Shown: positions 1 to 55,799, counted from the first letter of the whole stretch. The stretch is DNA of 62,055 bases, filler included, from Candidatus Hydrogenedentota bacterium (GCA_040752395.1; 6 parts of 6 records of this genome joined end to end with filler, not necessarily neighbours in it); one strand, 5' to 3'. The notes: generated by a model from the letters alone, not told the origin. Numbers and translations: made by a program.

Positions 1-224
1 GTTATTGCGTTTTTGCGCTCTACACAATATATGAAAAACTAAAGATGATATGAAAAGAGTCACAAGTCGCAAGTCGTGAGTCAAAACAGGACTCGAGACT
101 CAAGACTCAAGACTCAAGACTTTTCAGCAGGCTCCGGGCTTCGGGCTCCAGCCGGCTGTAGTCCGTAGCCTGGAGCCTGTAGCCCGAATTATTAGAGTGA
201 CAGCGTTTTTCAAAGGAGGTAACT
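1..224 (+). repeat. Mosaic intergenic cassette (modules A2-B-C-D-E) ending in the RBS of gltA
   Basis: GCGCTCTACAC, ATGAAAAACTAAAGATGATATG, GACTCAA heptamers, CAGCCGGCTG palindrome, then ATTAGAGTGACAGCGTTTTTCAAAGGAGG-taact-ATG; near-identical modules at 31.6-31.9k, 39.7-39.9k and 50.3-50.6k. Confidence 0.95.
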
Positions 225-1532
225 ATGTCAAACCTAAAAACAAAATTGGCACAAAAGATTGAACCTGTAAGTTCTGAGATGAAAAAACTCGTGAAAGAGC
301 ACGGAGATAAAGTCATCTCTGAAGTTACAGTCTCGCAACTCTACGGCGGTATGCGCGATATTAAATGTCTTATCTGTGAGACGTCGTTCCTTGACCCGAT
401 GGAAGGAATAAGATTTAGAGGTTATAATATACCTCAACTACGAGAAAAACTACCGAGAGCCAAGGACAGCGAAGAACCTCTACCTGAAGGTATTTTCTAT
501 CTTATGCTTACAGGCGAAATACCAACTGATGAAGAGGTTAAAGAAATTACTGAAGACTGGAGAGGGAGAAGTAAACTCCCTGATTATCTTATCAAAATAA
601 TCGATTCTTTGCCCGTTGATATGCACCCAATGACACAATTCTCACTTGCTATACTTGCTCTACAAAAAGATTCTATATTCGCAAAACGTTATTCCCAGGG
701 AATGAAAAAAACAGAATACTGGGACCCGATGTATGAAGATAGTATGAACCTTCTTGCTAAATTGCCAGGGATAGCAGCATATATATATAGAAGAAGTTAT
801 AAAAATAACAAACATATTCCTGCTGACCCGAAACTCGATTGGGCAGCTAACCTTGCTCATATGCTCGGCGTAGAAGATGACACTTTCAAGGAGTTGCTAA
901 GACTCTATCTTGTTCTTCATGCTGACCACGAGAGCGGTAATGTAAGCGCCCATACCACCCATCTTGTCGGTTCTGCTCTCTCTGATGCATATTATTCTCT
1001 ATCAGCTGGTTTAAATGGGCTTGCTGGCCCATTACACGGCCTTGCCAATCAAGAAGTATTAAGATGGATTATGGAGATGCAGAAATTACTTGGTGGTGGG
1101 GTCCCGGCTAAAGATAAACTTACGGAGTTTGTGTGGGATACGTTAAATAAAGGCCAGGTTGTTCCTGGCTACGGTCATGCTGTATTAAGATTTACTGACC
1201 CGCGATATACAGCTTTTCGTGAATTCGGGCTTAAACATACCCCAGATGATGAAATCTTTAAAATCGTTAGCCTTTTATACGAGGTTGTACCTGATGTACT
1301 TAAACAACAGGGTAAGGTAAAAGACCCATGGCCTAATGTTGATGCGCATTCTGGCTGTCTGTTATGGCACTACGGCATAAGAGAGTACGATTTTTATACT
1401 GTATTTTTCGGGATATCCCGTGCTCTCGGTGTACTTGCATGGCTAATCTGGAACAGAGCACTCGGTTCGCCGATTGAACGACCTAAATCACTGACAACAG
1501 CCCTTGTTAAATCTAAACTTGGCATTAGTTAA
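225..1532 (+). CDS. gltA: Citrate (Si)-synthase, eukaryote-like type
   Basis: HADHESGNVSAH, LAGPLHGLANQE, VPGYGHAVLR, WPNVDAHSG motifs. Confidence 0.95.
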   Translation: MSNLKTKLAQKIEPVSSEMKKLVKEHGDKVISEVTVSQLYGGMRDIKCLICETSFLDPMEGIRFRGYNIPQLREKLPRAKDSEEPLPEGIFYLMLTGEIPTDEEVKEITEDWRGRSKLPDYLIKIIDSLPVDMHPMTQFSLAILALQKDSIFAKRYSQGMKKTEYWDPMYEDSMNLLAKLPGIAAYIYRRSYKNNKHIPADPKLDWAANLAHMLGVEDDTFKELLRLYLVLHADHESGNVSAHTTHLVGSALSDAYYSLSAGLNGLAGPLHGLANQEVLRWIMEMQKLLGGGVPAKDKLTEFVWDTLNKGQVVPGYGHAVLRFTDPRYTAFREFGLKHTPDDEIFKIVSLLYEVVPDVLKQQGKVKDPWPNVDAHSGCLLWHYGIREYDFYTVFFGISRALGVLAWLIWNRALGSPIERPKSLTTALVKSKLGIS

Positions 1533-2296
1533 TGAACCAACATCAAGATAGACAGCTCGGGGATGAATGGGTTGATTGGGATGGTGAAATAAGTTCTGAA
1601 ATAATTGACAATCATTCATCCCCGTTGTTATTTTTAAGTTTATCTCTGGTTTGTTTCTTTATTTCTGTATTTTTAGTCTCATTTTTATACTACCTGATCT
1701 CACCCCGTCTCTCTTTGCTTGGACAAATATATCTTTCTTCTGGTAGATTTTTACTCTATCTTATCCTGTTTTTATTTGCTTTCTTTTATTTATTAATCCT
1801 GCTTAAGACAATAAAGAAAATTAAATTACCTGTATTAAATAAATTTGCAGATTTCTTTATTGGATTTTTTTCTCATTACTCACTAAAACTCGGGATACTC
1901 TTTGGAATTAGAAAAGATAAGATTCTTAACTCTTATATTATGTTTAATAATTCTCTTATTGAAAAATTGGATCTAAAAAATCTGACAAAAATTATGATTC
2001 TATTACCACGGTGTCTTTCAAAAAACATAATCGAGGAGATAAAAAAGAGCGCTTCAAAATTTAATTATCCGGTATTTATAGTTCCTGGTGGCGACCTTGC
2101 AAGAGCTAAAATAAAAGAATATAAACCCGATGCTATAATAGCTGTTGCGTGTGAACGTGATTTATATAGCGGCCTAAAAGATACGCCTTCTCATATCCCG
2201 GTATATGCTATACCTAATATCCGACCTGATGGCCCGTGTAAGAACACCTGCATAGATTATAATACATTTGATAAAGTATTGAAGTTATTCAGATAG
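1532..2296 (+). CDS. DUF116 family membrane protein
   Basis: N-terminal hydrophobic helices; LLPRCL, PGG, AVACERDL, GPCKNT motifs. Confidence 0.8.
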   Translation: MNQHQDRQLGDEWVDWDGEISSEIIDNHSSPLLFLSLSLVCFFISVFLVSFLYYLISPRLSLLGQIYLSSGRFLLYLILFLFAFFYLLILLKTIKKIKLPVLNKFADFFIGFFSHYSLKLGILFGIRKDKILNSYIMFNNSLIEKLDLKNLTKIMILLPRCLSKNIIEEIKKSASKFNYPVFIVPGGDLARAKIKEYKPDAIIAVACERDLYSGLKDTPSHIPVYAIPNIRPDGPCKNTCIDYNTFDKVLKLFR

Positions 2297-2545
2297 GTAT
2301 GTTTTTAAATACAAAAATTACAAATGTGGATAAAGTTTCGCTTGGTTTAAATGATTTTATTGTTTTTAACTTAATAAGACCTGATCTTGATACCTCATTG
2401 ATTATCTCCTCTTTAGTAAATGATACCTCGGCAAGTGAACTTTCTGGATGAGCATATTTATACCACACTCTCGTCTTTTGTAGTTATTAGTAATCTCAGT
2501 ATAAATAGTCTTAATCTCTCAATTGTTTTAATTATAAAACTTTTT

Positions 2546-2658
2546 ATCATAAATATACTATTGGGTCTTCAATCCCGGCGTTCTCAAAGCCTTTTATTCT
2601 TAATAAACACGAGTCGCATTTGCCACAAGCTTTATCGGTATTCTTATAGCATGACCAT
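2546..2658 (-). repeat. Displaced 113-bp copy of the queC 3' end (direct repeat of 3555-3667)
   Basis: 111/113 identical to 3555-3667, including the stop codon. Confidence 0.95.
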
Positions 2659-2810
2659 TGGCTACTTTTATGATATAATTACAATAAAAAGTCGAGGTTT
2701 AATAGAGCGCTACAGTAATCACATCGATAAAATAAAGAATAAAAATATTGCAAAGATATAAAAAATATTTATAATATTAAAAAGAATAAAATTTGGTAAT
2801 TTTAGTTATT

Positions 2811-3200
2811 ATGAGAGATAGTGAACAAGTTAAATACTGGCTCAGTTGTGCGGAACAGGATTTAGCTGTTGCAGAACATCTTTTTACCCATGGTTATTAT
2901 ATTTGGTCTCTTTTTATAGGACATCTTGTTATTGAAAAAATGTTAAAGGCATTTTATGTAAAAGATAATTTTAAAATTCCTCCTAAAATCCATAATTTAT
3001 TAATACTGGCAGAATCAACACGTATCAATTTAACTTCTGAACAAAAGAAACTTCTTTTTGAAATTAATGGTTTTAATATTGAAACACGATATCCAGAAGA
3101 AAAAATGACTTTTTATAAAATCTGCGATCAGAAGTTTGCCAATGAATATTTCACAAAAATAAAGGAGTTATATCTATGCCTGAAAGAACAGATGAAATAG
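2811..3200 (+). CDS. HEPN domain protein (putative toxin)
   Basis: W..A..DL..A, HLVIEKMLKA, HNL and RYP motifs; overlaps the downstream nucleotidyltransferase; ATG start chosen at 2811. Confidence 0.85.
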   Translation: MRDSEQVKYWLSCAEQDLAVAEHLFTHGYYIWSLFIGHLVIEKMLKAFYVKDNFKIPPKIHNLLILAESTRINLTSEQKKLLFEINGFNIETRYPEEKMTFYKICDQKFANEYFTKIKELYLCLKEQMK

Positions 3201-3493
3201 TTAATATCGTAAGACGCTATATAAATGAATTAGAAAAGAACAATATACATATCACTGATGCCGTTTTATTCGGTTCTTATACTAACGGCAATCCTCATCA
3301 ATACAGCGATATTGATATAGCACTAGTTTCGGAAAACTTTTGCGGTATAAGATTTCTGGATCGTAAAAATATCGCTGATATAACACTTATAATAGACCAC
3401 CGTATTTCTCCTTTGCCGTTTCGTCCAGAAGAATTTAACGATAATAGTTTGTTTGTTAAGGAAATTTTAACAACAGGCAAGCGGATTCTTTAA
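3176..3493 (+). CDS. Minimal nucleotidyltransferase (MNT, putative antitoxin)
   Basis: LFGSY...SDIDIALV motif, 105 aa. Confidence 0.88.
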   Translation: MPERTDEIVNIVRRYINELEKNNIHITDAVLFGSYTNGNPHQYSDIDIALVSENFCGIRFLDRKNIADITLIIDHRISPLPFRPEEFNDNSLFVKEILTTGKRIL

Positions 3494-3555
3494 AATTATA
3501 AACTATCGATGTAACTACTTTTAGGGAAACCAAAAAAGAGATGGTGTTATTTCAA

Positions 3556-4287
3556 TCATAAATATACTATCGGGTCTTTAATCCCGGCGTTCTCAAAGCC
3601 TTTTATTCTTAATAAACACGAGTCGCATTTGCCACAAGCTTTATCGGTATTCTTATAGCATGACCATGTTAAATGAAATGGTACCTTGAGTTCTACCCCT
3701 TTTAAAACTATCTCTTTTTTATTTAAAAAAATAATCGGTGTTTTTAGAGTGATTTTAGTCTCAGGTTTGGTCCCTGCATTAACTGCATCTTCCATCTTTT
3801 TTATAAATTCGGGTCGTGTATCAGGATAACCTGAACTGTCTTCATAAACAACACCTATATAAATAGAACCAGCGCCTAAAACCTCGGCCCAGCTCGTTGC
3901 TATTGAAATAAAATTACCATTTCTAAACGGCACATAAGTTAGAGGTACTACCATTCTATCCACTTCTGATCTATTAGACCATGTAAGTTTTTGACTTATC
4001 GGTATATCAATATTTCTGTCTATTAAAGCAGAACCACCTATCTTAACTAAATAATCAATATCTACAACTAATCGATTTTTTATATTATAGTAATCCGCTA
4101 TATCATTGAAGGCTTTCAATTCTCTTTCGGCGGTCCTGTGTCTGTATGTGATATGGATTAAATTTACTTTATTATTTTCATTTATAGCTATAGCAGTGGT
4201 AACAGAGGAATCCATACCGCCTGATAAAAGAACAACCGCTTCATTCATAAACCAGCCATCTTCTAATTCACTTCTTGTTACTGCCAT
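3556..4287 (-). CDS. queC: 7-cyano-7-deazaguanine synthase
   Basis: LSGGMDS, TYVPFRN, YPDTRP, TWSCY..CGKCDSC; start is 4287 (SD AGGGGTG) or 4248. Confidence 0.95.
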   Translation of the reverse strand: MAVTRSELEDGWFMNEAVVLLSGGMDSSVTTAIAINENNKVNLIHITYRHRTAERELKAFNDIADYYNIKNRLVVDIDYLVKIGGSALIDRNIDIPISQKLTWSNRSEVDRMVVPLTYVPFRNGNFISIATSWAEVLGAGSIYIGVVYEDSSGYPDTRPEFIKKMEDAVNAGTKPETKITLKTPIIFLNKKEIVLKGVELKVPFHLTWSCYKNTDKACGKCDSCLLRIKGFENAGIKDPIVYL

Positions 4288-4349
4288 CTTTATCACCCCT
4301 GTTTATTTTTCTTATAGTATAAAACTTCAACATTTACAAGAGATTTTTA

Positions 4350-4826
4350 TATTAGCACGTACTCCCTCAGTTTTCAGTGGAGCAGTATATATTGTTTATA
4401 TTATTCTTTCTATATTGTCAGGTTATGGTATAAAATATCTGTTAACTAAAACCAGTAAAAAAATTATTTTAACTCTTCTAATCTCATTAATTATTATACT
4501 TGAATATTTACCCGTACCTTTTGCTTTTATAAATTTAGAATATGATAAGTTTTATAAAAGAATATCAGAAGATAAAGAAGAATATGCGATATGCGAGGTT
4601 CCGATAACAGAATGGCCTGAACCTATCCAGTATTATCAAACAATTCATAAAAGCCCATACTTGCAGGATTAGAATCACTTATAAATAATAAGATAAAATA
4701 CATTATATATCATAAGAAATATTTTCAACTGCGAAGCGGGTCTTTAATCGAAAACCTGTTAGATAATACCCTCAAATTTAATAGTATCTATAAAAGCAAC
4801 GAGATGAAGGTCTATCAATTGTATTA
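4350..4826 (+). pseudogene. Fragment of a YfhO-like membrane glycosyltransferase, frameshifted near 4650
   Basis: Two TM segments, then EYLPVP..AICEVP..YQTIH; continues in another frame as KPILAG..IKYIIYHK..VYQLY*; no convincing start. Confidence 0.55.
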
Positions 4827-4830
4827 ATCT

Positions 4831-5469
4831 TTATTTCACATTAATTATTTTATGTAGCTGAATATTCAGATATATATCTTCTTTTGATTCAAGTATCCAG
4901 CAAGCGAGGTCAAAAGCTGAAAGGATATTATAAGCTGGTGAAAATGATATTTCTACTTTGTGAGCTAATTTATTTTTTCTGATAAAATTTATTGCAAACT
5001 CAAAATCGCTTCTGTTACTGATAACAAATTTTAACTGGTCTCTGAAATGAAGATATTTAAGGTTTTCTTTTAAAAACGATTTACCTTCACCGCTTCCCGG
5101 ACATTTCACATCAACAATCTTTATTACATTCTCCGGTAGTTTTTTTAAACTCAATGAACCATTTGTCTCAAGAAGCACAAAATAATTAAGGTTTAAGAGA
5201 TAATTTATTAATTTCAATGTTTCGGTCTGTAATAAAGGCTCTCCACCTGTTATAAGAACACGTTTAACTTTATACTCTTTTATTTCCTGGTAAATCTCCT
5301 CAAAACCAATTTTTCTTCCTTTTTCAAACCCCTGCGCATAAACGGTATCGCAATAAGAACATTTTAAATTACAGCCGGCAAGCCTTATAATAATAAATGG
5401 TAATCCCTGATAACTCGATTCGCCAAGTATAGAGTAAAATATTTCAGAGATGATTATTTGATTATTCAT
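4831..5469 (-). CDS. queE: 7-carboxy-7-deazaguanine synthase (radical SAM)
   Basis: EIFYSILGE, CNLKCSYCDT, TGGEP, ETNG, QLHK. Confidence 0.92.
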   Translation of the reverse strand: MNNQIIISEIFYSILGESSYQGLPFIIIRLAGCNLKCSYCDTVYAQGFEKGRKIGFEEIYQEIKEYKVKRVLITGGEPLLQTETLKLINYLLNLNYFVLLETNGSLSLKKLPENVIKIVDVKCPGSGEGKSFLKENLKYLHFRDQLKFVISNRSDFEFAINFIRKNKLAHKVEISFSPAYNILSAFDLACWILESKEDIYLNIQLHKIINVK

Positions 5470-5830
5470 AATAGATAGCTTCGCTATCTTCTGTCTCGTT
5501 TACAGAAACATAACAAAGTCTGATTTCTTTAGTTAACCCTTTTTTTATTCTATCAAAGATATATTTAGCTATATTTTCTGATGTTGTTTCGAGTGTATTA
5601 AATGGTTTTATTTCATTTAAGAGTTTATGGTCTATGTCTTTTAATATTCTATCAAGCCTGTTTCTTAATATTCTGAAATCAATTACCATGCCGTCATCAT
5701 TTAATCTCTTTTTTTCGCAACAGACCCGAACGACAAAATTATGTCCGTGCAATTTTTCACAGTTGCCTTTATATTTTTTTAAAAAATGAGCGGCTGAAAA
5801 ATTACGTTTTACCACAACTCTATATGACAT
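5462..5830 (-). CDS. queD: 6-carboxytetrahydropterin synthase
   Basis: FSAAH, CEKLHGHN, DH..LN, TSENIA; start at 5830 after SD AGGAG. Confidence 0.92.
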   Translation of the reverse strand: MSYRVVVKRNFSAAHFLKKYKGNCEKLHGHNFVVRVCCEKKRLNDDGMVIDFRILRNRLDRILKDIDHKLLNEIKPFNTLETTSENIAKYIFDRIKKGLTKEIRLCYVSVNETEDSEAIYYE

Positions 5831-5837
5831 ACTTAAC

Positions 5838-5905
5838 TCCTGTCTTCTGTCTCCTGTCTCCATTTGTGCCTTTGTACCTTTTCTTTCTGTCTTCTATCTT
5901 TCTAC
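5838..5905. repeat. Heptamer/octamer tandem array (TCCTGTC/TTCTGTC, TTGTGCCT)
   Basis: Same units recur near 17.85k, 24.26k and 30.07k. Confidence 0.7.
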
Positions 5906-5908
5906 GTA

Positions 5909-7813
5909 TCATCTCCTCTTTATCGTATCCACTATTTTTGTAATCTCCTCTTTAACTTTGTTTATAAAATTATCTAATTCTGTCCTTGTATTATATAAAT
6001 CTTTCTGGATATCCATCCTGCATAGAACATAGAACTTTATTTTTGGTTCGGTACCCGAGGGCCGTGCTATAACTTTTCCCCGTCTATTATCAAGCTCAAA
6101 AATTACAACGTCTGATTTTGGTAATATTTTACCATCTATATCAACGATTTCGTCTTTTAATAAATCAGCCACTTTTATTACTTTAATACCTGCAATATTC
6201 TCCAATGGTTTCTCACGTAACATTTTCATAAGACTATCCATTTTGTTTTTGCCTTCGATCCCCTCAAATTTATAATTTAATACGCCCTCTTCATAATACC
6301 CGAATTCCTCATAAAGCTCTTTCAGTCTATCTACAAGTGTTTTACCTTTGTTTTTCCAGTAAACAACTAGCTGGGCTATTATAGCAGAAGAGGTTATCGA
6401 ATCTTTATCCCGAATAAAAGTTCCCTGCGAATACCCATAACTCTCTTCTCCACCAAGAACATAATACTTCGAGTATCTCTGATACCACTTTCTTCTGATT
6501 TCTTCTCTTGTTTTTGCCCATTTTATAAAATTTTCTGGATTAATCTTTTCTTTGTTACCGCCATTCTTCATACCAAGAATTTCGTAATCGTTTATCTTTT
6601 CACCTATATACTTGAACCCGGTAAGTGTTTCAACAACTTTTACTCCATACTTAGAAGCTATATCTTTTACAAGGTCTGTTGTCACAATGGTTTTTATAAC
6701 GACATTCTCTCCCTCTAATTTACCAAGCTCTTTATAATGCATCAGAACATAATCGGTCATAAGAGAGAATGTTTTATTTCCGGTTAAAAGAACAATGTTA
6801 TTATCTTTATCTCTGCAAGCTATGCCCACTCTATCAGCATCCGGGTCTGTAGCTATCAACAGGTCAGCTTGATTTTTTTCCATATACTGTAACCCCATAT
6901 TTAAACCTTCTTTTTCCTCCGGGTTTGGACTTCTTGTTGTGGGGAACGAGCCATCAGGGATACTCTGCTCTTTAACAAGATATAACCTCTTCACGCCTAT
7001 CTTTTTTAATACCTCAGGTATAATTCTATATCCTGTACCGTGTAATGGCGTGTATACCACTTTTATTTTACTGATACCCGGTGAAGGTAGATAAGAAACA
7101 TAATCTAAGACCATATCAATAAAAGATTTATCTATCTTTCTGCCAAGCATTATTATCTTCTTTTTTTGTCTTGCTTTTTTAAAATCCGTTACAGAAATTT
7201 TATCAAGTTCAGTTATAGAATTTACCATTTCAATAATCTTTTTATCCCATGGTGGAACAACCTGAGAGCCTGTTTTATCTGAAACTTTGTAACCGTTATA
7301 TTGAGGTGGATTATGGCTCGCTGTAACAATAATACCAGCAGTAGCATTAAGGTATCTTACTGCAAACGAAAGCAAAGGAGTGGGTTTTATATCATCAAAA
7401 ATATAAGTTTTAATATTTTTAGCTGCGAGAACCATAGCAGCATTTTTAGTAAACTCTAAACTTTTATTTCGACAATCATAAGCTATAACAACACCCGGCT
7501 TTTTAACGCCACTTGATTTTATTAAAAATTCACAGAGACCGGCTGTAGCGCGCCTGACTGTATAAATATTCATTCTATTAGTTCCGGGTCCTATTATCCC
7601 ACGCAACCCACCGGTACCAAACTCCATAGCAGTATAAAAACTTTCTATAAGTGTTTTGTAATCTCTTTTTCTAATAAGATTTATTAATTCGTCTTTTACA
7701 GATTTATCATAATCCTTCTTGAGCCATTCGTTAATTTTAAGATAAATATCATTATTTATTAAATTCTTTATTTTTAGTTCTTCAAGAATAGTAAAGGTAT
7801 CTTCGTAAAACAT
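5909..7813 (-). CDS. Phosphoglucomutase/phosphomannomutase
   Basis: FGTGGLRG, TASHNP, DPDADR, GEESYG, RPSGTEPK; true start 7813, the upstream extension is repeat-derived. Confidence 0.93.
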   Translation of the reverse strand: MFYEDTFTILEELKIKNLINNDIYLKINEWLKKDYDKSVKDELINLIRKRDYKTLIESFYTAMEFGTGGLRGIIGPGTNRMNIYTVRRATAGLCEFLIKSSGVKKPGVVIAYDCRNKSLEFTKNAAMVLAAKNIKTYIFDDIKPTPLLSFAVRYLNATAGIIVTASHNPPQYNGYKVSDKTGSQVVPPWDKKIIEMVNSITELDKISVTDFKKARQKKKIIMLGRKIDKSFIDMVLDYVSYLPSPGISKIKVVYTPLHGTGYRIIPEVLKKIGVKRLYLVKEQSIPDGSFPTTRSPNPEEKEGLNMGLQYMEKNQADLLIATDPDADRVGIACRDKDNNIVLLTGNKTFSLMTDYVLMHYKELGKLEGENVVIKTIVTTDLVKDIASKYGVKVVETLTGFKYIGEKINDYEILGMKNGGNKEKINPENFIKWAKTREEIRRKWYQRYSKYYVLGGEESYGYSQGTFIRDKDSITSSAIIAQLVVYWKNKGKTLVDRLKELYEEFGYYEEGVLNYKFEGIEGKNKMDSLMKMLREKPLENIAGIKVIKVADLLKDEIVDIDGKILPKSDVVIFELDNRRGKVIARPSGTEPKIKFYVLCRMDIQKDLYNTRTELDNFINKVKEEITKIVDTIKRR

Positions 7814-7944
7814 AGAATCCTCCTCTGAAAAACATTGTAACTCTAATGATATCAAGTAGAAGCAAGAAGCAAGATAACGGAAGAAGTGAGAGGTATCAGG
7901 ACGGGCTACAGGCTACAGGCTACGGACTACAGCCGGCTGGAGCC
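7814..7944 (-). repeat. Mosaic cassette D-F-E providing the RBS of the phosphomannomutase
   Basis: Minus strand ..GTTACAATGTTTTTCAGAGGAGG-attct-ATG; the contig ends inside module D. Confidence 0.95.
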
Positions 7945-8044: not shown

Positions 8045-8600
8045 AAGAATTTTTATAAGTAATATTACCACAGAATCCAAGTACAAATCCGTTATCAATT
8101 ACTTTAAAAGCTAATTTTTTATCACCTGAGAAACAATGCCAGACCCCATAAAGTTTCGAACCATCAAAATATGATTTTAATATTTCATGCATTCTTTTAT
8201 CTGATTCTCTTGAATGAATTATAATTGGCAGCTCCAGGGATAGTGCCAACTCAATAAATTCTCTAAAAATATTTTCCTGTAGTTTTTTATTATCTACATT
8301 TCTGTAAAAATCAAGTCCGACTTCTCCGATAGCTTTTAATTTAGTGTTATTTTTTTCTTGCTGTATCATCAAAGTGACTTCCTCAGTAAAACTTTTGATA
8401 TTATTAGGATGAATACCCCAGGCAAAATATACAATTTCGAAAAGTTCTGCGATTTTTTTTACTTTAGACAGGGATTCGCGAGAATCAGAAGGGTTTAAAA
8501 TATATTTTACATCGTTCTCTTTTGCCCGCTTTATTACTTCTTCGATATTATTATCAAATCTTATATCATCAAGATGTGCATGTGAATCAACATAATTCAT
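8045..8600 (-). CDS. tatD: TatD family DNase (3' end cut by contig edge)
   Basis: DSHAHL, GIHP, IGEVGLD, IIHSR, HCFSG. Confidence 0.9.
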
Positions 8601-10141
8601 ATTTTAACTTTTTTAAAAAGTATAATACTTTCTTTGAGTTTTTTACCCTTTTTTAATTTACCAAACAAAAGATTGTCTTTCATAGATACGTCTTTAACCT
8701 TTTCTTCAGCTAAACAATCGAGCATCCTTTCAGCTGATTCTGGAATAAAAGGCTGTAGTAAAATAGCGAGTCTTCTTAAGGAATCAACGACTATATATAA
8801 AACAGTTTTCAAACGTTCAATAGCATCTTTCTTATAAAGGTTCCATGGTGCTTGATGGTCTATATATTGATTTAAAAGTTTTATACATTTCCAGATTTCT
8901 TCAAGCGCCTTATTAGTATAAAAATTCTTCATACTATTAAAAACTCTCTCATATAAAATATTCATCTCATCTATTACTATTTTATCATCATCAGTGTAAC
9001 TAAAATTGTCTGAAGGGATAACCCCTTCAAAATATTTATGAACCATACTAATAGACCTTGAGAAAAGGTTCCCAAGGTCATCTGCAAGATCAGAGTTTAA
9101 TCTATTAATAAGGTTTTCTTCTTTAAAATCAGCATCAAGCCCGAATCCCATCTCTCTTAAAAGAAAATATCTAAACGCATCTTTACTATATTTTTCACCC
9201 ATCTCAAGCGGTCTTACCACATTATCAAGGCTCTTGCTCATCTTCGATGTAGCCATCATCCAGTATCCATGAACGTTCAGTTTTTTGTATAAAGGCAGTC
9301 CTGCTGATTTCAACATAATGGGCCAGAACACAGCGTGCGGTTTTAAGATATCCTTTGCGATCAGATGTTCTGCATATCCCCAAAATTTTTTATAATTATC
9401 ACCAGCCGTGCCCAAACCGCTAATGTAATTTATCAAAGCATCAAACCAGACATAAGTGACATAATTTTTATCAAAAGGTAAAGTTATGCCCCAGTTAAGC
9501 CTGCTTTTGGGTCTGGAGATGCATAGATCACCAATAGGCTCTTTTAAGTATGCGAGTATCTCATTTTTATATCGTTCTGGTCTTATAAATTCAGGATTAT
9601 TATTTATATAATCAAGTAGCCAAGGTCTATATTTTTCCATCTTAAAAAAATAGTTTTCTTCTTTTATATATTCGAGTTTGGTCTTATGGTCAGGGCAAAA
9701 ACGCTCTTCGCTGATCATGACCCATTCTTTCTCAGTATAAAACCTTTCACACCCTGTACAATAATAACCCCCAAATTCACTGAAATATATGTCGTTGTTA
9801 TGATATACTCTTTTTAATATATCACAAACAACATTGCTATGATACTCATCTGTGGTACGTATAAAATTATCAAACGTTATCCCCATCTCAAGCCATGTCT
9901 CTTTGAAAATAGAAGCTATCCTGTCAACGTAATCTTTAGGATTAACATTCTCTTTTGCTGCTGTTCTTTGTATTTTATCGCCGTGTTCATCAGTACCTGT
10001 AAGAAAAAATACCTCGTAATCATTTAATCTATAAAATCTTGCGAGTGTATCAGCTAAGATTGTAGTGTAAGCATGACCGAGATGTGGTGTAGCGTTAACA
10101 TAATATATCGGGGTTGTAATATAAAATATCCTCTCAGACAT
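8597..10141 (-). CDS. metG: Methionine--tRNA ligase (short form)
   Basis: TTPIYYVN..HLGH, YVWFDAL, KMSKS. Confidence 0.96.
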   Translation of the reverse strand: MSERIFYITTPIYYVNATPHLGHAYTTILADTLARFYRLNDYEVFFLTGTDEHGDKIQRTAAKENVNPKDYVDRIASIFKETWLEMGITFDNFIRTTDEYHSNVVCDILKRVYHNNDIYFSEFGGYYCTGCERFYTEKEWVMISEERFCPDHKTKLEYIKEENYFFKMEKYRPWLLDYINNNPEFIRPERYKNEILAYLKEPIGDLCISRPKSRLNWGITLPFDKNYVTYVWFDALINYISGLGTAGDNYKKFWGYAEHLIAKDILKPHAVFWPIMLKSAGLPLYKKLNVHGYWMMATSKMSKSLDNVVRPLEMGEKYSKDAFRYFLLREMGFGLDADFKEENLINRLNSDLADDLGNLFSRSISMVHKYFEGVIPSDNFSYTDDDKIVIDEMNILYERVFNSMKNFYTNKALEEIWKCIKLLNQYIDHQAPWNLYKKDAIERLKTVLYIVVDSLRRLAILLQPFIPESAERMLDCLAEEKVKDVSMKDNLLFGKLKKGKKLKESIILFKKVKI

Positions 10142-10266
10142 ACTACTCCTCTGAAAAACGCTGTAACTCTAATAATATCAAGTAGAGGCAAGAAGCAAGA
10201 TAACGCAAGAACGCAATAACCCAATAACCCAATAGTGTAGAGCGCAAAAGCGCTCATGTTGATTCC
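10142..10266 (-). repeat. Mosaic cassette A1-octamers-F-E providing the RBS of metG
   Basis: ATGAGCGCTTTTGCGCTCTACAC..TTATTAGAGTTACAGCGTTTTTCAGAGGAG-tagt-ATG. Confidence 0.95.
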
Positions 10267-10278
10267 TATGAAAAAATA

Positions 10279-11013
10279 CTAAGTAAGAATGGTTTGAGCA
10301 GTTTGCTGGTCTGCTGATTGTTTCTCTGGTATCTCCTCGTCTCTGCCTTCCCTGCGTATCTCAGCCTGGAGTTCTGGAGATAATTCATACATAAGGCAGC
10401 ACATCAGCCTGCCACAGAGTCCTGATATTTTAAGCGGGTTCAGGCTCAAATTTTGTTCTTTAGCTGCTCTTATTGATACCGGGCAAAACTCTCTTAAATT
10501 TTCAGCACAGCATAACCTCACACCGCAACATCCCAGTCCGCGAAGCATTTTTGCCTCATCACGAACACCTATCTGTCTTAATTCTATTCTTCGTTTAAAT
10601 ACCTTAGCAAGGTCTTTAACAAGTTCCCTGAAATCAACTCTATTATCAGCTCTAAAATAAAAGACATATTTACATCTATCAAAGAGCACTTCGCAGGTTA
10701 CAGGTTTCATTGGAAGCTTGTGTTCTTCTATCTTTTCCCTGAAAACTTTGAGTGCTTTTATAGCCTCTGCCTTGTTCTGTTTCCATTGTTCTATATCTTT
10801 ATCAGAAGCTTTTCTTATGATTTTTTTAGTAGGTTTAAGCGGCATTTCATCTTCTCTATTATAGATTTTAGGGTCAACCACCACATATCCGAGTTCCTGG
10901 CCGCGTTCTGTCTCTACAAGCACTCTATCGCCCCTTTTTAAAACATCCTCTTCTACCTGGAAATAATATATCTTTCCTGCTTTTTTAAATTGTACACCTA
11001 CTATCTCAATCAC
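10279..11013 (-). CDS. ricT: PSP1/YaaT (RicT) family protein
   Basis: RVDFRELVKDLA, RQIGVRDE, KISGLCGRLMCCL. Confidence 0.9.
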   Translation of the reverse strand: MIEIVGVQFKKAGKIYYFQVEEDVLKRGDRVLVETERGQELGYVVVDPKIYNREDEMPLKPTKKIIRKASDKDIEQWKQNKAEAIKALKVFREKIEEHKLPMKPVTCEVLFDRCKYVFYFRADNRVDFRELVKDLAKVFKRRIELRQIGVRDEAKMLRGLGCCGVRLCCAENLREFCPVSIRAAKEQNLSLNPLKISGLCGRLMCCLMYELSPELQAEIRREGRDEEIPEKQSADQQTAQTILT

Positions 11014-11984
11014 ACCATAACCTCCCTCATACGCATAAGTGCTTCTGGTAAAATAATATCTGCATTCAAATCTCGTGACAATCCTTCTCTTAAATTTATT
11101 ATCTCTTTTAAAACAAATTTTTCTTTTAATGGTGAATTCAACTTTTGTAAAGAGTTATCATACAATTTATCAGTCAATTTTTTTATAAATAAATCTATAA
11201 ATAATATATAGATATCCTTGAATGATATACCATCAGTAGCATCTATTTTTTCGTCTTCTTTATCTTCTTTTATCGCTCTCTTAATTTCAGTAATAATAAA
11301 ATTAAATATCTCACTTTTTTTATTACTGAAAAACAACTCTTCGAAATTTTTATACACATCACAAAACTTAGAATCTAATAAAAACCTAGCTATTTTTACA
11401 CTGCCCCTTGAATAAGGAAGCACGCCGTCAATATCCGCTGGAGGATAGTCTGTACTTAATATTTTTTTCAGTGTTATATCATCAAGTCTTTTGAATGTTA
11501 CCGGGATGCATCGCGAAGCTATTGTAGGGAATAGTTTTTCTTTATTCTGCGCTATAAGAATAAAGATGGTAGAATTCGAGGGTTCCTCGAGTGTCTTTAA
11601 AAAGGCGTTTGCACTCTCTTCATTAAAGGATTCAGGATACAATATAAAAACTTTTTTTTTTGCTTCTATTGGATAAAGAAACGATTCTTTGATAATTACC
11701 TCCTTCATATACTTTATAGATAAGACAGTCTTCTTATCTTTTTTAAAAGTTCTTACATCAAAATAAATATCCTTCATTATATTTCTACAAGTTGTACATT
11801 CGAGACAGGGCTTTATTAATGCTTCACAATTTATGCCCATAGCAAAATATCTGGAAGCAGTAAGCCTGCCAACCCCCGCTAACCCAAGAAAAAGATATGC
11901 ATGATGAAAATTTTCGTTCTCAATAATTCTATCAAGATACGCTAATACCTCGTCCTGTCCTATTAAAAACTCTTCTTTTTTCAC
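11010..11984 (-). CDS. holB: DNA polymerase III delta' subunit
   Basis: HAYLF.G, Cys4 zinc module, ANAFLKTLEEP, TIASRC; tmk-yaaR-holB-yaaT context. Confidence 0.88.
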   Translation of the reverse strand: MKKEEFLIGQDEVLAYLDRIIENENFHHAYLFLGLAGVGRLTASRYFAMGINCEALIKPCLECTTCRNIMKDIYFDVRTFKKDKKTVLSIKYMKEVIIKESFLYPIEAKKKVFILYPESFNEESANAFLKTLEEPSNSTIFILIAQNKEKLFPTIASRCIPVTFKRLDDITLKKILSTDYPPADIDGVLPYSRGSVKIARFLLDSKFCDVYKNFEELFFSNKKSEIFNFIITEIKRAIKEDKEDEKIDATDGISFKDIYILFIDLFIKKLTDKLYDNSLQKLNSPLKEKFVLKEIINLREGLSRDLNADIILPEALMRMREVMV

Positions 11985-12499
11985 TCTTCTTTCCCCTCAA
12001 GTATAACTATATCAAGTAATAAACCCCTTATATCATCGACTTTCGATAAAATATTTAGATTATTTTTTTCTTTTTTTACTAATTCGTCTGCGAGTTCCTC
12101 TAACTTTTCGTTTATATCTTCTGCGATAAGATATATCTTCTCATTTTCGACAAATCTTCTATGCTTCTTCTCAACGACTCTATATAAATCAGGGATTACT
12201 TTTCTCAAAAACTCCTGTATTAAAGCCTTATACCTCGCAAATACTGATAAACTACCTGTTTTAGGCAGCACTTTTCCAATCTCGTCTATCTCTCTGATAA
12301 GTTTCTCAAGCTCATACTTTGATACTGTAGTTGAATAATTTTTAACTATCTCTTCAAAACTTGATGTCTCCTCAATATCCGAAACCCTTGTATCAGCATC
12401 AGCAGATTTTAACACTCTTGCTTTTTCTAAATCTTTACCGCCACCGCTCTTTAATGAACCTGTCCCGGGTGCTGAGCTCTCTGCTTTAGTAACCTTCAT
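11981..12499 (-). CDS. YaaR/DUF327 family protein
   Basis: C-terminal IRGLLLD, YK.LI..FL; conserved position between tmk and holB. Confidence 0.8.
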   Translation of the reverse strand: MKVTKAESSAPGTGSLKSGGGKDLEKARVLKSADADTRVSDIEETSSFEEIVKNYSTTVSKYELEKLIREIDEIGKVLPKTGSLSVFARYKALIQEFLRKVIPDLYRVVEKKHRRFVENEKIYLIAEDINEKLEELADELVKKEKNNLNILSKVDDIRGLLLDIVILEGKEE

Positions 12500-13158
12500 A
12501 CCTTAAATCCTCTCTCTATTAACATAAGCTTTACAAAATCTAATACCTTTTCAAAAATTTTATCCTCATCATCATTAACATAAATATACTTAACTCTATC
12601 CGGTTCTTTCTGCTGTATCTTTTTATATCCTTCTCTCACTCTTCTGTGAAAACTTATACCCATCTCCTCAATTCTGTCAGGTGTACCGGCTGATTCATCC
12701 TTGGCTAAAGCTATGGCCTTTTTTAACCCTCTTTCAGCCTCTATATCAAGAACCAGGGTAATATCAGGAAGACAACCATTAACAGCAATTTTATTCAGGG
12801 TTTCGATAAGTTCTAAATCAAGTTGTCTGCCGTAACCCTGATACGCAGTAGATGAATCCATAAACCTATCACAGATAACAATAGTTCCTCGCATAAGCGC
12901 GGGTTTAATCATTTCTTCAATGTGTTGTGCTCTACAAGCAGCATATAATAAAAGCTCTGTTGTAGAGATCATTTCTTTATTTTTAGGGTCAAGCAATAAC
13001 CCTCTTATTTTATCTCCGATTAAACTGCCACCAGGTTCACGGGTATACAAAACCTCATTTCCCCTGTCCCGTAAATATTGAACAAGTCTCGAAGACTGGG
13101 TTGTTTTACCACTGCCCTCAGGCCCCTCAAAAGTTATGAAAATCCCTCTCTTCTTCAT
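12496..13158 (-). CDS. tmk: Thymidylate kinase
   Basis: FEGPEGSGKTTQ, TREPGG, CDRF..S..AYQG. Confidence 0.95.
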   Translation of the reverse strand: MKKRGIFITFEGPEGSGKTTQSSRLVQYLRDRGNEVLYTREPGGSLIGDKIRGLLLDPKNKEMISTTELLLYAACRAQHIEEMIKPALMRGTIVICDRFMDSSTAYQGYGRQLDLELIETLNKIAVNGCLPDITLVLDIEAERGLKKAIALAKDESAGTPDRIEEMGISFHRRVREGYKKIQQKEPDRVKYIYVNDDEDKIFEKVLDFVKLMLIERGFKV

Positions 13159-13678
13159 AATTAATAAACTCCTTTTCTAAAAATTGTAAAGCTGTTATTT
13201 CTTTTCTCATTATATACCGTTTAGTTTTATACCTGCTGTTTTTCCAGAAAGCTACACCCTCTTCATTCTCACTGAATACATCTACTTCTATATATTTCAC
13301 GTTCTTTAACTTGAACCACTCTTCTATCCTCTCTAATAACTCTTTCCCGATTTTAAGTTTTCGATAATTATCATCAACATATAATTCAGCAATGAGACCA
13401 TAATTATATTGTTTCAGCGGTTGGGGACATTGTTTCAGCCCACCAAGAATATAGCCGATGCATTTTTCTTTATCTTTTGCCACAAAAGCACCTGTTGTAT
13501 CTTTATGTAGCAATGTATTTAAATAATTTCTGTAATAGGAACATGCATTCTCATCAAGCTCAAGTTTAGCATCAATCCTGGAATGATGTTTTACGAACTC
13601 TAACCATAAATCTATTATATTTTCTATATCAGCAAGCGATGCCTGCCCTATTTTAATATTATCTTCTCTCCCATTCAT
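13127..13678 (-). CDS. GNAT family acetyltransferase
   Basis: LYV...YR..KIGKELL acetyl-CoA motif, N..GVAFW. Confidence 0.85.
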   Translation of the reverse strand: MNGREDNIKIGQASLADIENIIDLWLEFVKHHSRIDAKLELDENACSYYRNYLNTLLHKDTTGAFVAKDKEKCIGYILGGLKQCPQPLKQYNYGLIAELYVDDNYRKLKIGKELLERIEEWFKLKNVKYIEVDVFSENEEGVAFWKNSRYKTKRYIMRKEITALQFLEKEFINYEEERDFHNF

Positions 13679-13696
13679 ATACTTGCTCTAATTTCG

Positions 13697-14275
13697 CTAA
13701 TAAGCGCTCAATGGTAAAATAAATTCATTAAATTTACCGGGTTTATAGTCTTGTTTATATGAGCTCTCAGGACTTCGTTGAATCCTTATTGCGAAGACAT
13801 CTGATTCCATAGCCTCGGTTATATCGCTGTCACTATCTCCAAAGAAACAAATAAACCTGTGTTTTTTTAAAACATCAGATTTATATTCTGAATTATCTGT
13901 AAAATATATCTCATCAGTCAGCCACTCCCAGTATTTCTTTATTTTATCAGTATTTATATCGGGCCTTGCTGTGATTATTACAGAATCTATCCCGAATGCC
14001 CTGGCTAAAATTGCTATACTTACTGTAACCTTCTTTATATTGCCATTTTCAATATCACCATTTACCATTTCCCAATATTTGGGAGAAAATTTTTTGATTT
14101 TAAATTTATATGCAAGTTTATCAGCTTTGACAAATGCGGGCGAAGAAAATATCAAAGTATCATCCATATCAAACCCTATCTTTACATCAAGCACAACATT
14201 TGTTAAAACGATTATTGCATATACAAGAACCAGTATTAAAAAAACAACAAATTTTTTCTTAATAGCCATTGGCAA
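13697..14275 (-). CDS. HAD superfamily class B acid phosphatase-like protein
   Basis: N-terminal TM; FDMDDT, ITAR, FGDSDSD, R...SSY. Confidence 0.75.
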   Translation of the reverse strand: MPMAIKKKFVVFLILVLVYAIIVLTNVVLDVKIGFDMDDTLIFSSPAFVKADKLAYKFKIKKFSPKYWEMVNGDIENGNIKKVTVSIAILARAFGIDSVIITARPDINTDKIKKYWEWLTDEIYFTDNSEYKSDVLKKHRFICFFGDSDSDITEAMESDVFAIRIQRSPESSYKQDYKPGKFNEFILPLSAY

Positions 14276-14345
14276 CCCTGTAATTCATCAATTATAGGTG
14301 AATAAGAAATAAAAAGTAAGAAGTGAGAAGTATCAGATTTCTTTC

Positions 14346-15032
14346 TTATTTACATTGTGTAACATCGCATACTATGCAGGGGACATTTCTTCCTGGATAC
14401 CCTAATTTTTTACGCACCTCCATTATTTTTTCTACGTCTTCTTTAGATAAATAATTTATCTGTCCTATATTCATAGCATAATAATAGATACGTGCAAAAT
14501 GTTCAACTGTTTCAAGTCGATAATATGCTTGTTTTAAATCTTCTCCGAATGTTAAAACACCATGGTTCTGTAACAACATCGCATCGCATTTAGGAACAAG
14601 TTCTTTTATCGAGTCAGGGACCTCAGTTGTAGAAGGAGTTGCATACGGTGCTTTTGGTATAGCTCCTAAGGTGGCTATAACCTCGGGTAAAACGCATTTT
14701 GATAGATCAAACTCTGATACGGCAAATGCTGTTGAATACTGTGGATGAGCATGAACAACTGCTTTAATATCTTCCCTGATGTTATATGCTACAAGATGCA
14801 TTTTTATCTCAGAAGATGGTTTTTTTGCGCCGTTAAAAACATTGCCATTCAAATCCATTAAAACAATATCATCTATATTTAACTCGCCTTTACAAACTCC
14901 TTGTGGCGTAGCTAAAACCCTGTTTTTTTCAACCCTTATACTTATATTCCCATCAAAAGCTACAACTAAACCATTCTCATACATCCGCTTCCCTATCTCA
15001 ACTATCTCTTTCCTTGCTCTAAATAATTCCAT
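14346..15032 (-). CDS. Class II aldolase/adducin family protein (FucA-like)
   Basis: GNIS, PSSE..MH, HAHP, LLQNHG; true start 15032. Confidence 0.88.
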   Translation of the reverse strand: MELFRARKEIVEIGKRMYENGLVVAFDGNISIRVEKNRVLATPQGVCKGELNIDDIVLMDLNGNVFNGAKKPSSEIKMHLVAYNIREDIKAVVHAHPQYSTAFAVSEFDLSKCVLPEVIATLGAIPKAPYATPSTTEVPDSIKELVPKCDAMLLQNHGVLTFGEDLKQAYYRLETVEHFARIYYYAMNIGQINYLSKEDVEKIMEVRKKLGYPGRNVPCIVCDVTQCK

Positions 15033-15195: not shown

Positions 15196-15201
15196 CTGTT
15201 T

Positions 15202-39970: not shown

Positions 39971-39981
39971 AAAAACCTGTT

Positions 39982-42777: not shown

Positions 42778-42887
42778 CCTTTACCTTTTCTTTCTTTTCC
42801 GTTATCTTGCTTCTTGCTTCTTGCTTCTTTCGTTATCTTTCTTTTCCGTTATCTTGCTTCTTGCTTCTTGCTTCTTTCGTTATCTTA
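42762..42887 (+). repeat. CCTCAA/CCTTAA array and duplicated F module between nadA and nadB
   Basis: TTCCGTTATCTTGCTTCTTGCTTCTTGCTTCTTTCGTTATCTT present twice. Confidence 0.88.
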
Positions 42888-50276: not shown

Positions 50277-50600
50277 TTGTATCCTCCCTCGAAAAACATT
50301 GTAACTCTAATAATATCAAGTAGAAGCAAGAGGCAAGAGGCAAGAAGCAAGATAACGGAAGAAGTGAGAGGTGTCAGGACAGGCTACAGACTACAGCCAG
50401 CTGGAGCCAAAAGCCCAAAGCCTGCTGAAAAGTCTTGAGTCTCGAGTCCTGTTTTGACTCACGACTTGCGACTTGTGACTCTTTTCATATCATCTTTAGT
50501 TTTTCATCCTTTGTGTAGAGCGCAAAAACACAATAACGCAATAACGCAATAACCCAATAACCCAATAGTGTAGAGCACAATCCGCGCTCATGACAACTCA
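50277..50600 (-). repeat. Most complete mosaic cassette A1-octamers-A2-B-C-D-F-E
   Basis: All main modules in order; ends TTTTTCGAGGGAGG-atacaa-ATG. Confidence 0.95.
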
Positions 50601-50614
50601 TTTATAAAATATAA

Positions 50615-52244: not shown

Positions 52245-52875
52245 CAGTCTTCTGTTAGTTTTCGGTTATCCAAAAGATGAAGGATGAAGTGCTGAAGAAC
52301 GTTTATCAGCGCTTCAGCCATTAGCACTTCAGCACTGGTGTCTTTCTTGCTTCTTGCCTCTTAATTCCACCCATAACTGATGGGATACATAATATAAGCA
52401 TTAAATTTTAAATAATTGCAAGTTGAAATATTTTGCAATTCAGACATTAGACTTCAGACTCCTGGACATCAGACTTTTTTGTGTAATCTCTGGCAATTCC
52501 ATTAAGTCTGGTGTTTGATCTCTATGGTCTTGTGTCACACAATAACCACTTTTATTTTTTGTAATTTCAATATAATCAATATAATGTAAAAAGGGTCACA
52601 AGAGCCATTCTTTAGACTTTAGAGATGTTAAAAAACATATCGAATTAAAAAATGGCGTTGAAACACATATAAGAAAAATGAGGAAAGGACTGACTTTGTA
52701 ATGGCTTTATTTGATACGGAATATATTAATAGATCATTATAAAAGAGTTAAGTTGTATGTTCCCAATTATTAAATTTAATATTATACAAATTTTCACATA
52801 CAACAGTTACTTTTAACCTCACAAAAGTGCGGTTATAATATTTACCAGTCGTTCCATTATAATTGCAAGTTAATA

Positions 52876-54465: not shown

Positions 54466-54526
54466 TATACTGATCTCCTGAAACGTGAGACACAGAAAAA
54501 GGCAAGGTAATTATATTCTATGAATA

Positions 54527-54613
54527 TTAGTGAGGGACTTCAGTCCCGTAAAATAATTCATTGATAGTTTTATAATTAAAGAACCAAAAGACGCACCTAA
54601 AGGTGCTCACTAC
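54527..54613. repeat. Convergent pair of GTAG REP-like hairpins (REPIN-like doublet)
   Basis: TTAGTGA-GGGAC-TTCA-GTCCC-GT (+) and GTAGTGA-GCACC-TTTA-GGTGC-GT (-) around a 41-bp AT-rich spacer. Confidence 0.8.
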
Positions 54614-54771
54614 AATTTTTTCACACCTTCTGATTGGATACAGCTGCCTTAACATTTTCTTGCTATTTTTTAATTATCATTATATTTTCAATTTTTACAT
54701 ATTTTTTATGAATTTCTATCTTGTATTTTCTGCTTAACTATATAAGTTTAGGCTAAAAAGGTTATAATATA

Positions 54772-55536
54772 ATGAATAATAAAGAGAATAACTTAATGCT
54801 TAAAAATGAATATAAAATAATGTATGATGCCGAAAATACACATTGGTGGTATATTGGATTAAGGTATTGGTTAAAAAAAGTATTATCAAAATTTATTAAT
54901 AAAAACTCGATTATCCTTGATGCAGGTTGCGGAACTGGAGCCAATATGTATTTATGTAAATCATTATCTTATGATCTTTATGGAGTTGATTTATCTGAAG
55001 AAGCACTAAAATTAACTCAGAATCGCGGGATTGAAAAAAAAAGATTATGTTGTGCCTCTGTTGATAAACTACCATTTAAATCAGAATGTTTCGACTCTGT
55101 GATTAGCATGGATGTATTATGTATTCTTGATGAAAAACAAGAAAAGTCAACATTGTTAGAGTTTATAAGAGTATTAAAAAAAGAGGGGATTCTAATCTTA
55201 AATTTACCTGCTTTTAGTTGGTTAGAGGGCGAACATGATCAGGCGGTTTCCACTAAACATCGATATATAATTAATGATATTAAAGATAAATTAGAATCAC
55301 TACAATTTAAAATAATCCGTTCAGAATATCGCTACCTCTTATTCCTTCCAGTATTATTTATAGTAAGATTAATCAGGTTTAAAAAGAAGGATAAAACAAG
55401 AGCCAGGTCTGATCTAACAGTTAATTGTAGAATAATAAATTTCTTTTTCAAAATTATTGTCTATTTAGATGAATTTATAGGCAACAATATATCTCGGCCA
55501 TTTGGAACGTCGGTTAGCATTGTTGCTCAAAAATAA
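54772..55536 (+). CDS. Class I SAM-dependent methyltransferase
   Basis: HWWY, LDAGCGTG, GVD.S, LPF...FD, PAF.WL..HD. Confidence 0.88.
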   Translation: MNNKENNLMLKNEYKIMYDAENTHWWYIGLRYWLKKVLSKFINKNSIILDAGCGTGANMYLCKSLSYDLYGVDLSEEALKLTQNRGIEKKRLCCASVDKLPFKSECFDSVISMDVLCILDEKQEKSTLLEFIRVLKKEGILILNLPAFSWLEGEHDQAVSTKHRYIINDIKDKLESLQFKIIRSEYRYLLFLPVLFIVRLIRFKKKDKTRARSDLTVNCRIINFFFKIIVYLDEFIGNNISRPFGTSVSIVAQK

Positions 55537-55639
55537 ATTTTTGTGTTGTTTTTCGCTTATTAACAATAAATTATACCAGATCAAATTTCTTGAAAGTTTT
55601 AGGAATGGCTATTATAAGCTTATACGGATATTCTGTCAT

Positions 55640-55799
55640 AAGATGATATGTTGGCTTCAGGCTCCGGGCTTTTGTCTCCAGCCGGCTGTAGTCCGTAGCC
55701 TGTCCTGACACCTCTCACTTCTTCCGTTATCTTGCTTCTTGCCTCTTGCCTCTTGCTTCTACTTGATATTATTAGAGTTACAATGTTTTTCAGAGGAGG
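55640..55799 (+). repeat. Orphan mosaic cassette B-D-F-E abutting the res stop codon
   Basis: ..TTTTTCAGAGGAGG immediately followed by TTA, the stop codon of the convergent gene. Confidence 0.93.

Follow-up and report, generated by a model that had tools for sequence, protein, structure and literature searches.

Why do the spacers before unrelated housekeeping genes look as if they had been put together from a single set of parts? This question is raised by a stretch of 62,055 nucleotides from a Candidatus Hydrogenedentota bacterium (GCA_040752395.1), hereafter the window, which has 34% GC and is made up of six contigs with N spacers between them (1-7944, 8045-15974, 16075-23979, 24080-31983, 32084-39981, and 40082-62055). 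A previous reading, made from the sequence alone, had proposed that 17 of its intergenic sites carry modular cassettes, and we have analyzed here their composition, their position, and their possible origin. The cassettes constitute a real, undescribed family that belongs to none of the families compared in this work. According to our favoured reading, to which we would give an even chance, they are lineage-specific, polar, non-coding mosaic cassettes that act as 5' leaders and inter-cistronic spacers and supply a ribosome-binding site (RBS). The RecA protein encoded in the window is at most 78% identical to any entry of a large protein set, and thus the organism has no close sequenced relative in the set compared; the best named matches, with 66-72% identity, belong to Bacillota and Clostridia.

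One parts kit in a fixed order

Modules of the same kit are present at 17/17 of the proposed sites, and parts of it were also found at six added places (5831-5908, 19699, 20838, 27640, 30060-30166, and 52270-52400). The self-comparison of the window rendered 19 repeated stretches, with a total of 2433 nt, all of them located in or beside spacers. Intergenic DNA amounts to 7436 of 61,611 bases (12%), and 12-mers common to at least three loci occupy 36.6% of these intergenic bases versus 3.25% of the coding ones; 26 of the 36 spacers of at least 15 nt have at least 12 bases in such 12-mers. The arrays with a period of 8 nt are all intergenic (5/5).

In a full copy the modules follow each other in the order T', h (a start-like ATG plus a GC hairpin), A, an octamer array (o), A, B1, B2, C, and a linker (l), and then D, g, y, the F heptamers, x, e, and the terminal module T, which ends in GAGGAG. 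C and D are heptamer-armed hairpins. The length of the cassettes ranges from ~25 to ~330 bp since C, D, and the g-y-F-x block can each be present or absent, B3 can stand in the place of B2, H octamers can replace h-A-o-A, and D can be connected to e either directly or via g-y-F-x. The number of units also varies, as previously proposed, with 2-4 units in F and 3-6 in the octamer arrays.

The order of the modules was analyzed in 16 cassettes written as module strings, i.e., 15 from the window and one from a 2.2-kb contig of a separate assembly (L002). Among the pairs of modules that co-occur, 110/112 are found in a single order, and the two pairs found in both orders (2/112) correspond to internal duplications, A-o-A and y-F-y. 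When the modules were shuffled within the cassettes (2000 shuffles), the mean number of conflicting pairs was 81 and the minimum 62, and therefore the fixed grammar postulated by the sequence-only reading is real. A different fate befell its proposal that modules are skipped at short shared words: these words are module borders with alternative neighbours and not clean microhomology deletions.

The order of the modules, their gene-ward orientation, and the lack of conservation of their reading frames support a single non-coding family with a fixed polarity. A coding reading was rejected, as no conservation was seen in the frames that start at the internal ATGs (23-67 codons from the ATG of h and 3-37 from that of B1), and thus the cassettes are non-coding. 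Decayed copies occur beside near-identical ones, and therefore the family has old and young members. The parts of the kit are also used in a second architecture, in which y-F lies antisense to the flanking genes (19699, 20838, and 27640) or in a divergent spacer (52340), connected at 20838, 27640, and 52340 to another module, Z. This antisense use of y-F(-Z) implies that the grammar applies to the T-type cassette and not to all uses of its parts. Module Z, which follows y-F (20838-20887, 27640-27700, and 52340-52400), contains a small stem, with CCTAT...ATAGG in one copy versus CCCAT...ATGGG in another; both sides have changed and the pairing is kept.

Concerning their folding potential, h, C, and D fold as internal hairpins, and inverted heptamer arrays with loops of 4-16 nt are found in C and D, in two other hairpins named K and X, and in the hairpin at 52270. 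The C, D, K, and X hairpins fold at -19 to -43 kcal/mol, with z-scores mostly between -2 and -6. The sense RNA of D is 6-10 kcal/mol stabler than the antisense RNA in 6/6 standard copies, which, being close kin, count as one observation. The copies of D fall into 3-4 near-identical types, whose left-arm variants weaken the stem without compensation. D is quasi-palindromic, but its arms can be distinguished, and it appears flipped relative to H at 36110.

The terminal module and the ends of the cassette

Module T, defined as GTTTTTCAGAGGAG with at most one mismatch, occurs 15 times in the window. In ten copies, 4-8 nt separate the end of T from the start codon of an open reading frame (ORF) of 215-634 codons, and another copy ends 11 nt before an ORF truncated by a contig end, so that T is located 4-11 nt upstream of a start codon in 11/15 copies. 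In addition, in one case another small hairpin has inserted 50 nt between T and its gene, and two copies are internal, with a start-like ATG 5 nt further on that opens the next module (h or B2/C). A pattern of the terminal module (22 positions, 20 of them specified) gave 11 matches with up to two mismatches and none in 100 shuffles. The homology between copies ends directly after GAGGAG, before the spacer and the ATG, and the spacers between T and the ATG are all different. The genes led by the cassettes are unrelated, i.e., they encode citrate synthase, a phosphoglucomutase-family (PGM) enzyme, methionyl-tRNA synthetase (MetRS), an aldolase, a kinase, a TIM-barrel enzyme, RecA, Nnr, and a GT87 glycosyltransferase. 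These positions bear out the placement at leaders and operon junctions of unrelated housekeeping genes that had been previously suggested. The ORF caller extended six of the led genes too far, into the cassette.

The left ends also carry a trace of T. In 5/6 h-type left ends there is a word that differs from the 13-nt T at 2-4 positions and ends 5 nt before the ATG of h, while only 3.2% of random 32-nt windows contain a word with up to 4 mismatches to T anywhere. Therefore, the cassettes are bracketed by direct repeats of ~13 nt (T'...T), of which T' is decayed mainly in its GGAG and the right-hand T is intact. The left edge at 34604-34620 has a 17-nt "stop-SD-ATG" look (SD, Shine-Dalgarno sequence). 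The sole inverted pair is internal and exact over 8 nt, formed by B1 (TGAAAAAC) and T (GTTTTTCA) in 3/4 copies tested. Thus, the absence of terminal inverted repeats proposed by the sequence-only reading was confirmed, but not an absence of terminal repeats of any kind. Neither terminal inverted repeats of the type found in BOX elements and miniature inverted-repeat transposable elements (MITEs) nor target-site duplications were found at the cassette ends, which consist of the direct T'...T repeats.

According to our favoured reading, the cassette, which is sense-oriented to the next gene, would form part of the mRNA of this gene, and its AU-rich e-T end would give the gene its SD, 4-11 nt before the start codon. 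The inner modules would be dispensable, changing when the 7- and 8-nt arrays slip and when modules are joined at their borders, in a way comparable to boxB in the BOX elements; it is the alternative neighbours of the modules that suggest a recombination between them. New copies would most likely arise by copy-and-paste at an existing RBS, so that the old RBS would be left decaying at the left edge as T' and the cassette's own T would do the work. A spread by insertion at existing RBSs can be proposed, as it would fit the direct repeats T'...T at the two ends, the existence of copies in tandem or nested in one another, and the appearance of the left edge at 34604-34620.

Upstream of the cassettes there are two promoter-like sites, one at 32414-32386 with 11/12 consensus matches, just upstream of the 32186-32335 cassette, and another one with 9/12 matches upstream of the cassette at 36108. 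A canonical promoter within e-T was rejected by eye, the spacing of its hexamers being 10-11 nt, and a hand-picked promoter upstream of the 15033 cassette was also discarded, as it has only 8/12 matches and was not listed by the promoter search.

Several observations weigh against this reading. Two of the 15 T copies cannot be an RBS, as they are turned towards the stop codon of a convergent gene, and some parts, such as y-F, also sit antisense to genes. The predicted accessibility of the SD was alike in 9 cassette-led and 24 other gene starts (p ~0.6), and thus a distinctive accessibility of the cassette-led genes was rejected. No promoter has been established, and the match found inside the g-y module, which recurs in three copies, is weak (9/12). 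No mobiliser was found in the window, and the spread of the cassettes is putative. Finally, the cassette copies are close kin, and the counts made over them are not independent.

The sites along the window

The gene content of the window is that of ordinary housekeeping, and it includes genes for citrate synthase, a PGM-family enzyme, TatD, MetRS, RicT/PSP1, a class II aldolase, the electron transfer flavoprotein (ETF) subunits, RecA, Nnr, NadA, NadB, and UvrA. There are also a HEPN/MNT-type pair (2793-3493) and a type III restriction-modification pair (res and mod; 55800-61859), with a cassette adjoining the res stop codon.

The first contig begins with A-B1-B2-C-l-D-e-T (1-224, plus strand), which is cut by the contig start and whose T ends 6 nt before the ATG of the citrate synthase gene at 225. 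A degenerate junction (5831-5908, minus strand), composed of a T-like word, octamers, an H-like unit, and GACAGRA heptamers, precedes a PTPS gene, and a D-g-y-F2-x-e-T cassette cut by the contig end (7814-7944, minus strand) leads into the phosphoglucomutase-family gene. The second contig contains T'-h-A-o4-y-F2-x-e-T between ricT (PSP1) and metG (10142-10278, minus strand), and h-A-o3-A-B1-B3-F2-x-e-T before the class II aldolase gene (15033-15185, minus strand). The third contig carries a y-F heptamer array (19699-19739, plus strand) that is antisense to the minus-strand genes that flank it, a y-F-Z unit of the second architecture antisense to etfB/etfA (20838-20887, plus strand), and a composite in which, next to an octamer array, e-T is fused directly to h-A-B1-B3-F2-x (23798-23979, plus strand; cut by the contig end).

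In the fourth contig, an H-like unit, GACAGRA heptamers, and D-g-y-F3-y-y-F3-y (24080-24290, minus strand) are cut by the end of the contig. Further on there are a y-F-Z unit (27640-27700, plus strand), a decayed cassette before an aminotransferase gene (30060-30166, minus strand) with a T-like word, H/B1, a second T-like word, and heptamers, and a tandem pair (31537-31983, minus strand) formed by H2-B1-K hairpin-T' followed by h-A-o5-A-B1-B2-C-l-D-e-T. A TAGTGAG hairpin interrupts the last T of this pair, 50 nt upstream of a nitroreductase gene. The TAGTGAG word with a directly adjoining GC-rich hairpin of 5-6 bp has five intergenic copies in the window (31575-31600, 36223-36242, 36287-36310, 54528-54550, and 54593-54612), of which two are terminator-like and one is that splitting a T module. 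Without regard to the hairpin, 10 occurrences of the word were counted versus 5.7 expected.

The fifth contig contains the following arrangements: X heptamer hairpin-F-x-e-T with an ATG 11 nt past T (32186-32335, minus strand); a solo T module that fills a 27-nt operon junction (33322-33348, minus strand); T'-h-A-o6-A-B1-B2-D-g-y-F4-x-e-T, which begins 17 nt past the stop codon of the upstream gene (34330-34620, minus strand); H2 followed by the flipped D hairpin, without T (36108-36215, plus strand); H2-B1-B3-F-x-e-T downstream of recA (38503-38611, minus strand), with 9 nt between the end of its T and the stop codon of a convergent gene; and x-e-T fused to B2'-C-l-D-e-T, which precedes recA and is cut by the contig end (39731-39981, minus strand). 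A plus-strand block of three genes (36336-38502) lies here within a minus-strand stretch, with H-bearing cassettes inverted at both flanks (36108, plus; 38587, minus), and this block could be an inversion between cassettes.

In the sixth contig, an antisense F unit followed by H2-B1-B3-F2-x-e-T precedes nnr (40201-40309, plus strand), and a 47-nt unit (y-F3-y), repeated 2.1 times and without T, lies between nadA and nadB (42789-42886, plus strand). The fullest copy, T'-h-A-o5-A-B1-B2-C-l-D-g-y-F4-x-e-T, precedes the GT87 glycosyltransferase gene (50277-50614, minus strand). Another heptamer-armed hairpin followed by an F-Z unit is located at 52270-52400 (plus strand), and B2-D-g-y-F4-x-e-T at 55639-55799 (plus strand), downstream of a methyltransferase gene and with its T abutting the stop codon of the convergent type III res gene.

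Known families, copies elsewhere, and rival readings

The closest analogue, which the sequence-only reading had left unnamed, would be the REP2 repeat of Neisseria, at least when compared by description. REP2 and the IR sequences of Borrelia plasmids are found upstream of unrelated ORFs, carry an RBS, and are read as copied 5' untranslated regions (PMC3184786). Like the cassettes, they are dispersed, have internal stem-loops and no terminal inverted repeats, and lie, with their RBS, immediately upstream of unrelated ORFs (PMC3184786). However, REP2 measures 120-150 bp, has ~26 copies per genome, contains both a promoter and the ATG, and labels a set of genes that are regulated together (PMC3184786), whereas the cassette stops before the spacer and the ATG, is modular over 25-330 bp, contains heptamer and octamer arrays, and occurs ~20 times in 62 kb before housekeeping genes. 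Moreover, the organism is unrelated to Neisseria, considering that its best named RecA matches belong to Bacillota.

The BOX elements of Streptococcus pneumoniae and S. suis have fixed end modules and variable tandem inner modules, with alternative ends in S. suis; they fold as RNA, are transcribed with the neighbour genes, and their length follows the size of the array (PMC3049150). The cassettes resemble them, as a design analogy only, in having fixed ends (h-A and e-T) and a variable number of F (2-4) and octamer (3-6) units. Unlike the cassettes, BOX elements are described with terminal inverted repeats, target duplications, and a proposed insertion sequence as mobiliser, and as over-represented between convergent genes rather than anchored to gene starts (PMC3049150).

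The period-7 arrays of the cassettes are all intergenic (21/21), a feature that recalls the cyanobacterial STRR and the TAACTGA arrays of Beggiatoaceae. In STRR, tandem heptamer units are confined to intergenic DNA. The TAACTGA arrays are mostly located a few nucleotides upstream of the start codons of unrelated genes (PMC4679880). Nevertheless, both are single direct arrays of one unit, whereas the cassettes combine several unit types, some of them inverted, within a larger ordered cassette. The REP/BIME and REPIN-RAYT systems are also intergenic mosaics of palindromic units with fixed linker motifs (PMC2817692, PMC3116915), but the module maps of the cassettes show no short GC-rich units in alternating orientation, and their gene-ward polarity is strict. 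The mycobacterial MIRUs are located, like the cassettes, between the cistrons of operons, and they are transcribed together with the genes on both sides; they contain small ORFs that overlap the neighbouring genes and tetranucleotide direct repeats (PMC3184786), whereas the internal frames of the cassettes are not conserved. A MITE was rejected, given the lack of terminal inverted repeats and of a transposase in the window, and no core-site motifs of integron attC sites were seen by eye, no formal search having been made.

The modules had no covariance-model match in Rfam, in agreement with the sequence-only reading, which did not recognise the composite. At the gathering threshold the window showed only two tRNAs and a piece of a group II intron, and a search at E <=1 over 14.5 kb comprising 11 cassette sites found nothing on the modules beyond two chance-level hits. 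The intron piece, domains 1-4 (RF02003, 70 bits), is located at a contig start (16070-16203, minus strand), and the genome probably holds an intron-encoded reverse transcriptase outside the window. A direct repeat of ~46 nt (27305-27365 and 27445-27500, copies ~125 nt apart) spans the last part (3') of the tRNA located at 27481-27551 and ~30 nt downstream of it, and it may be the scar of an element integrated at the tRNA.

The 57 ORFs of the window were scanned for domains (Pfam), and no transposase was found among them, as had been anticipated, nor RAYT (IS200/IS605-like TnpA), reverse transcriptase, or four-helix-bundle (PF05635) genes, the latter being also absent between the heptamer arms. 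The three large spacers examined contained no mobiliser-like ORF of at least 35 aa (PF05635, RAYT, or transposase).

We have also looked for copies elsewhere. A scan of 185,579 species genomes with the T pattern gave, among the matches listed, one true match (L002) and one by chance. L002 carries A-B1-B2-D-e-T before an unrelated gene, and its variant letters are identical to those of the 1-224 copy, although it lacks C. The metagenome-assembled genome that holds L002 is unrelated to the organism of the window (RecA and MetRS are 68% and 44% identical, respectively), and it contains the motifs on that contig only. Metagenome contigs rendered two chance matches only, the phage records no match, and the viral contigs no match to the T, D-core, A-B1, and D-arm patterns. 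C heptamer arrays were found in 24 viral contigs, 18 of which represent one phage locus with the array directly after the ATG; in three unrelated ones (L024, L025, and L035; 51-57% GC) the array lies between genes, directly before a start codon, and in L035 the arrays form an inverted pair. The sole match among the plasmid records was an array of the module A octamer in one Vibrio record. In this record, from Vibrio parahaemolyticus (CP099927.1; L037 1490-1630), the array is followed by a second octamer array, and both are located between a hypothetical gene and clpX. Single heptamer or octamer arrays are thus not unique to this organism.

The presence of C-heptamer arrays before start codons in three of the 24 viral contigs is one of the reasons to consider, as an unlikely alternative, that the cassettes are a nest of separate selfish mini-elements, i.e., that C, D, K, and X are ORF-less heptamer-armed hairpins that entered a leader of the ordinary type and depend on trans-acting functions for their mobilisation or processing, for instance on RNase III cutting. 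The window contains several unrelated heptamer hairpins, C and D can each be missing as a whole from copies that are nearly identical in the rest (1-224 versus L002), and D is flipped once, all of which agree with such a nest. On the other hand, a comparison of the junctions that have C with those that lack it does not show clean insertions, the ORFs and spacers mentioned above contained no PF05635, RAYT, or transposase gene, and the unique modules and the anchoring at the RBS would be left without explanation.

A somewhat less probable explanation is that of a shared cis-regulatory leader, kept alike by selection because a global post-transcriptional regulator, either a protein or a small RNA, binds e-T, F, or the arrays. 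The e-T end is indeed near-identical across unrelated genes, the modules of L002 are identical in a separate assembly, and TAACTGA repeats just upstream of start codons have been proposed as translational regulators (PMC4679880). Yet the led genes have no functional theme, the module content differs widely from gene to gene, two copies sit at 3' ends, and decayed copies exist. Furthermore, stretches of 100-300 nt of non-coding DNA that are identical at many loci point to common descent and not to convergence.

Lower in our estimation, and doubtful, is the view that the cassette is a non-coding integrative element whose attachment site is the RBS. It would recombine into the SD region and put in its own T, leaving the displaced site (T' plus 5 nt and the start-like ATG) at the left edge, and repeated rounds would yield the nested and tandem cassettes. 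A parallel is provided by genomic islands with tRNA genes as their targets, which restore the 3' end of the tRNA. If this were true, hundreds of unrelated genes would share a DNA-encoded common leader, a bacterial counterpart to the spliced leader that a single factor could control.

An assembly artefact, in which short-read chimeric joins and collapsed arrays would have broken up a uniform repeat, is very improbable, since, even if 7/12 contig ends fall in cassettes and the repeats exceed the k-mers typically used in assembly, at least 12 cassettes are contig-internal with unique genes on both sides, the gene-ward polarity is consistent, and the C-less form appears at two loci of the window and in the independent assembly of L002.

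The reading that we favour, that of mosaic leaders and spacers supplying an RBS, has consequences both practical and biological. The cassettes break short-read assemblies and make ORF callers over-extend the starts of genes. Their heptamer-armed hairpins connect them with a class of bacterial repeats that is widespread and little explained. Leader repeats have otherwise been described with a few dozen copies, in Neisseria and in Borrelia plasmids, and their origin and spread are given as open (PMC3184786); the T'...T bracketing offers a concrete and testable idea of how such repeats may multiply. If the window is typical, a third of the intergenic DNA of this organism would derive from one parts kit, and perhaps hundreds of its housekeeping genes would be translated from a copied RBS, which would make it by far the densest case of leader repeats.

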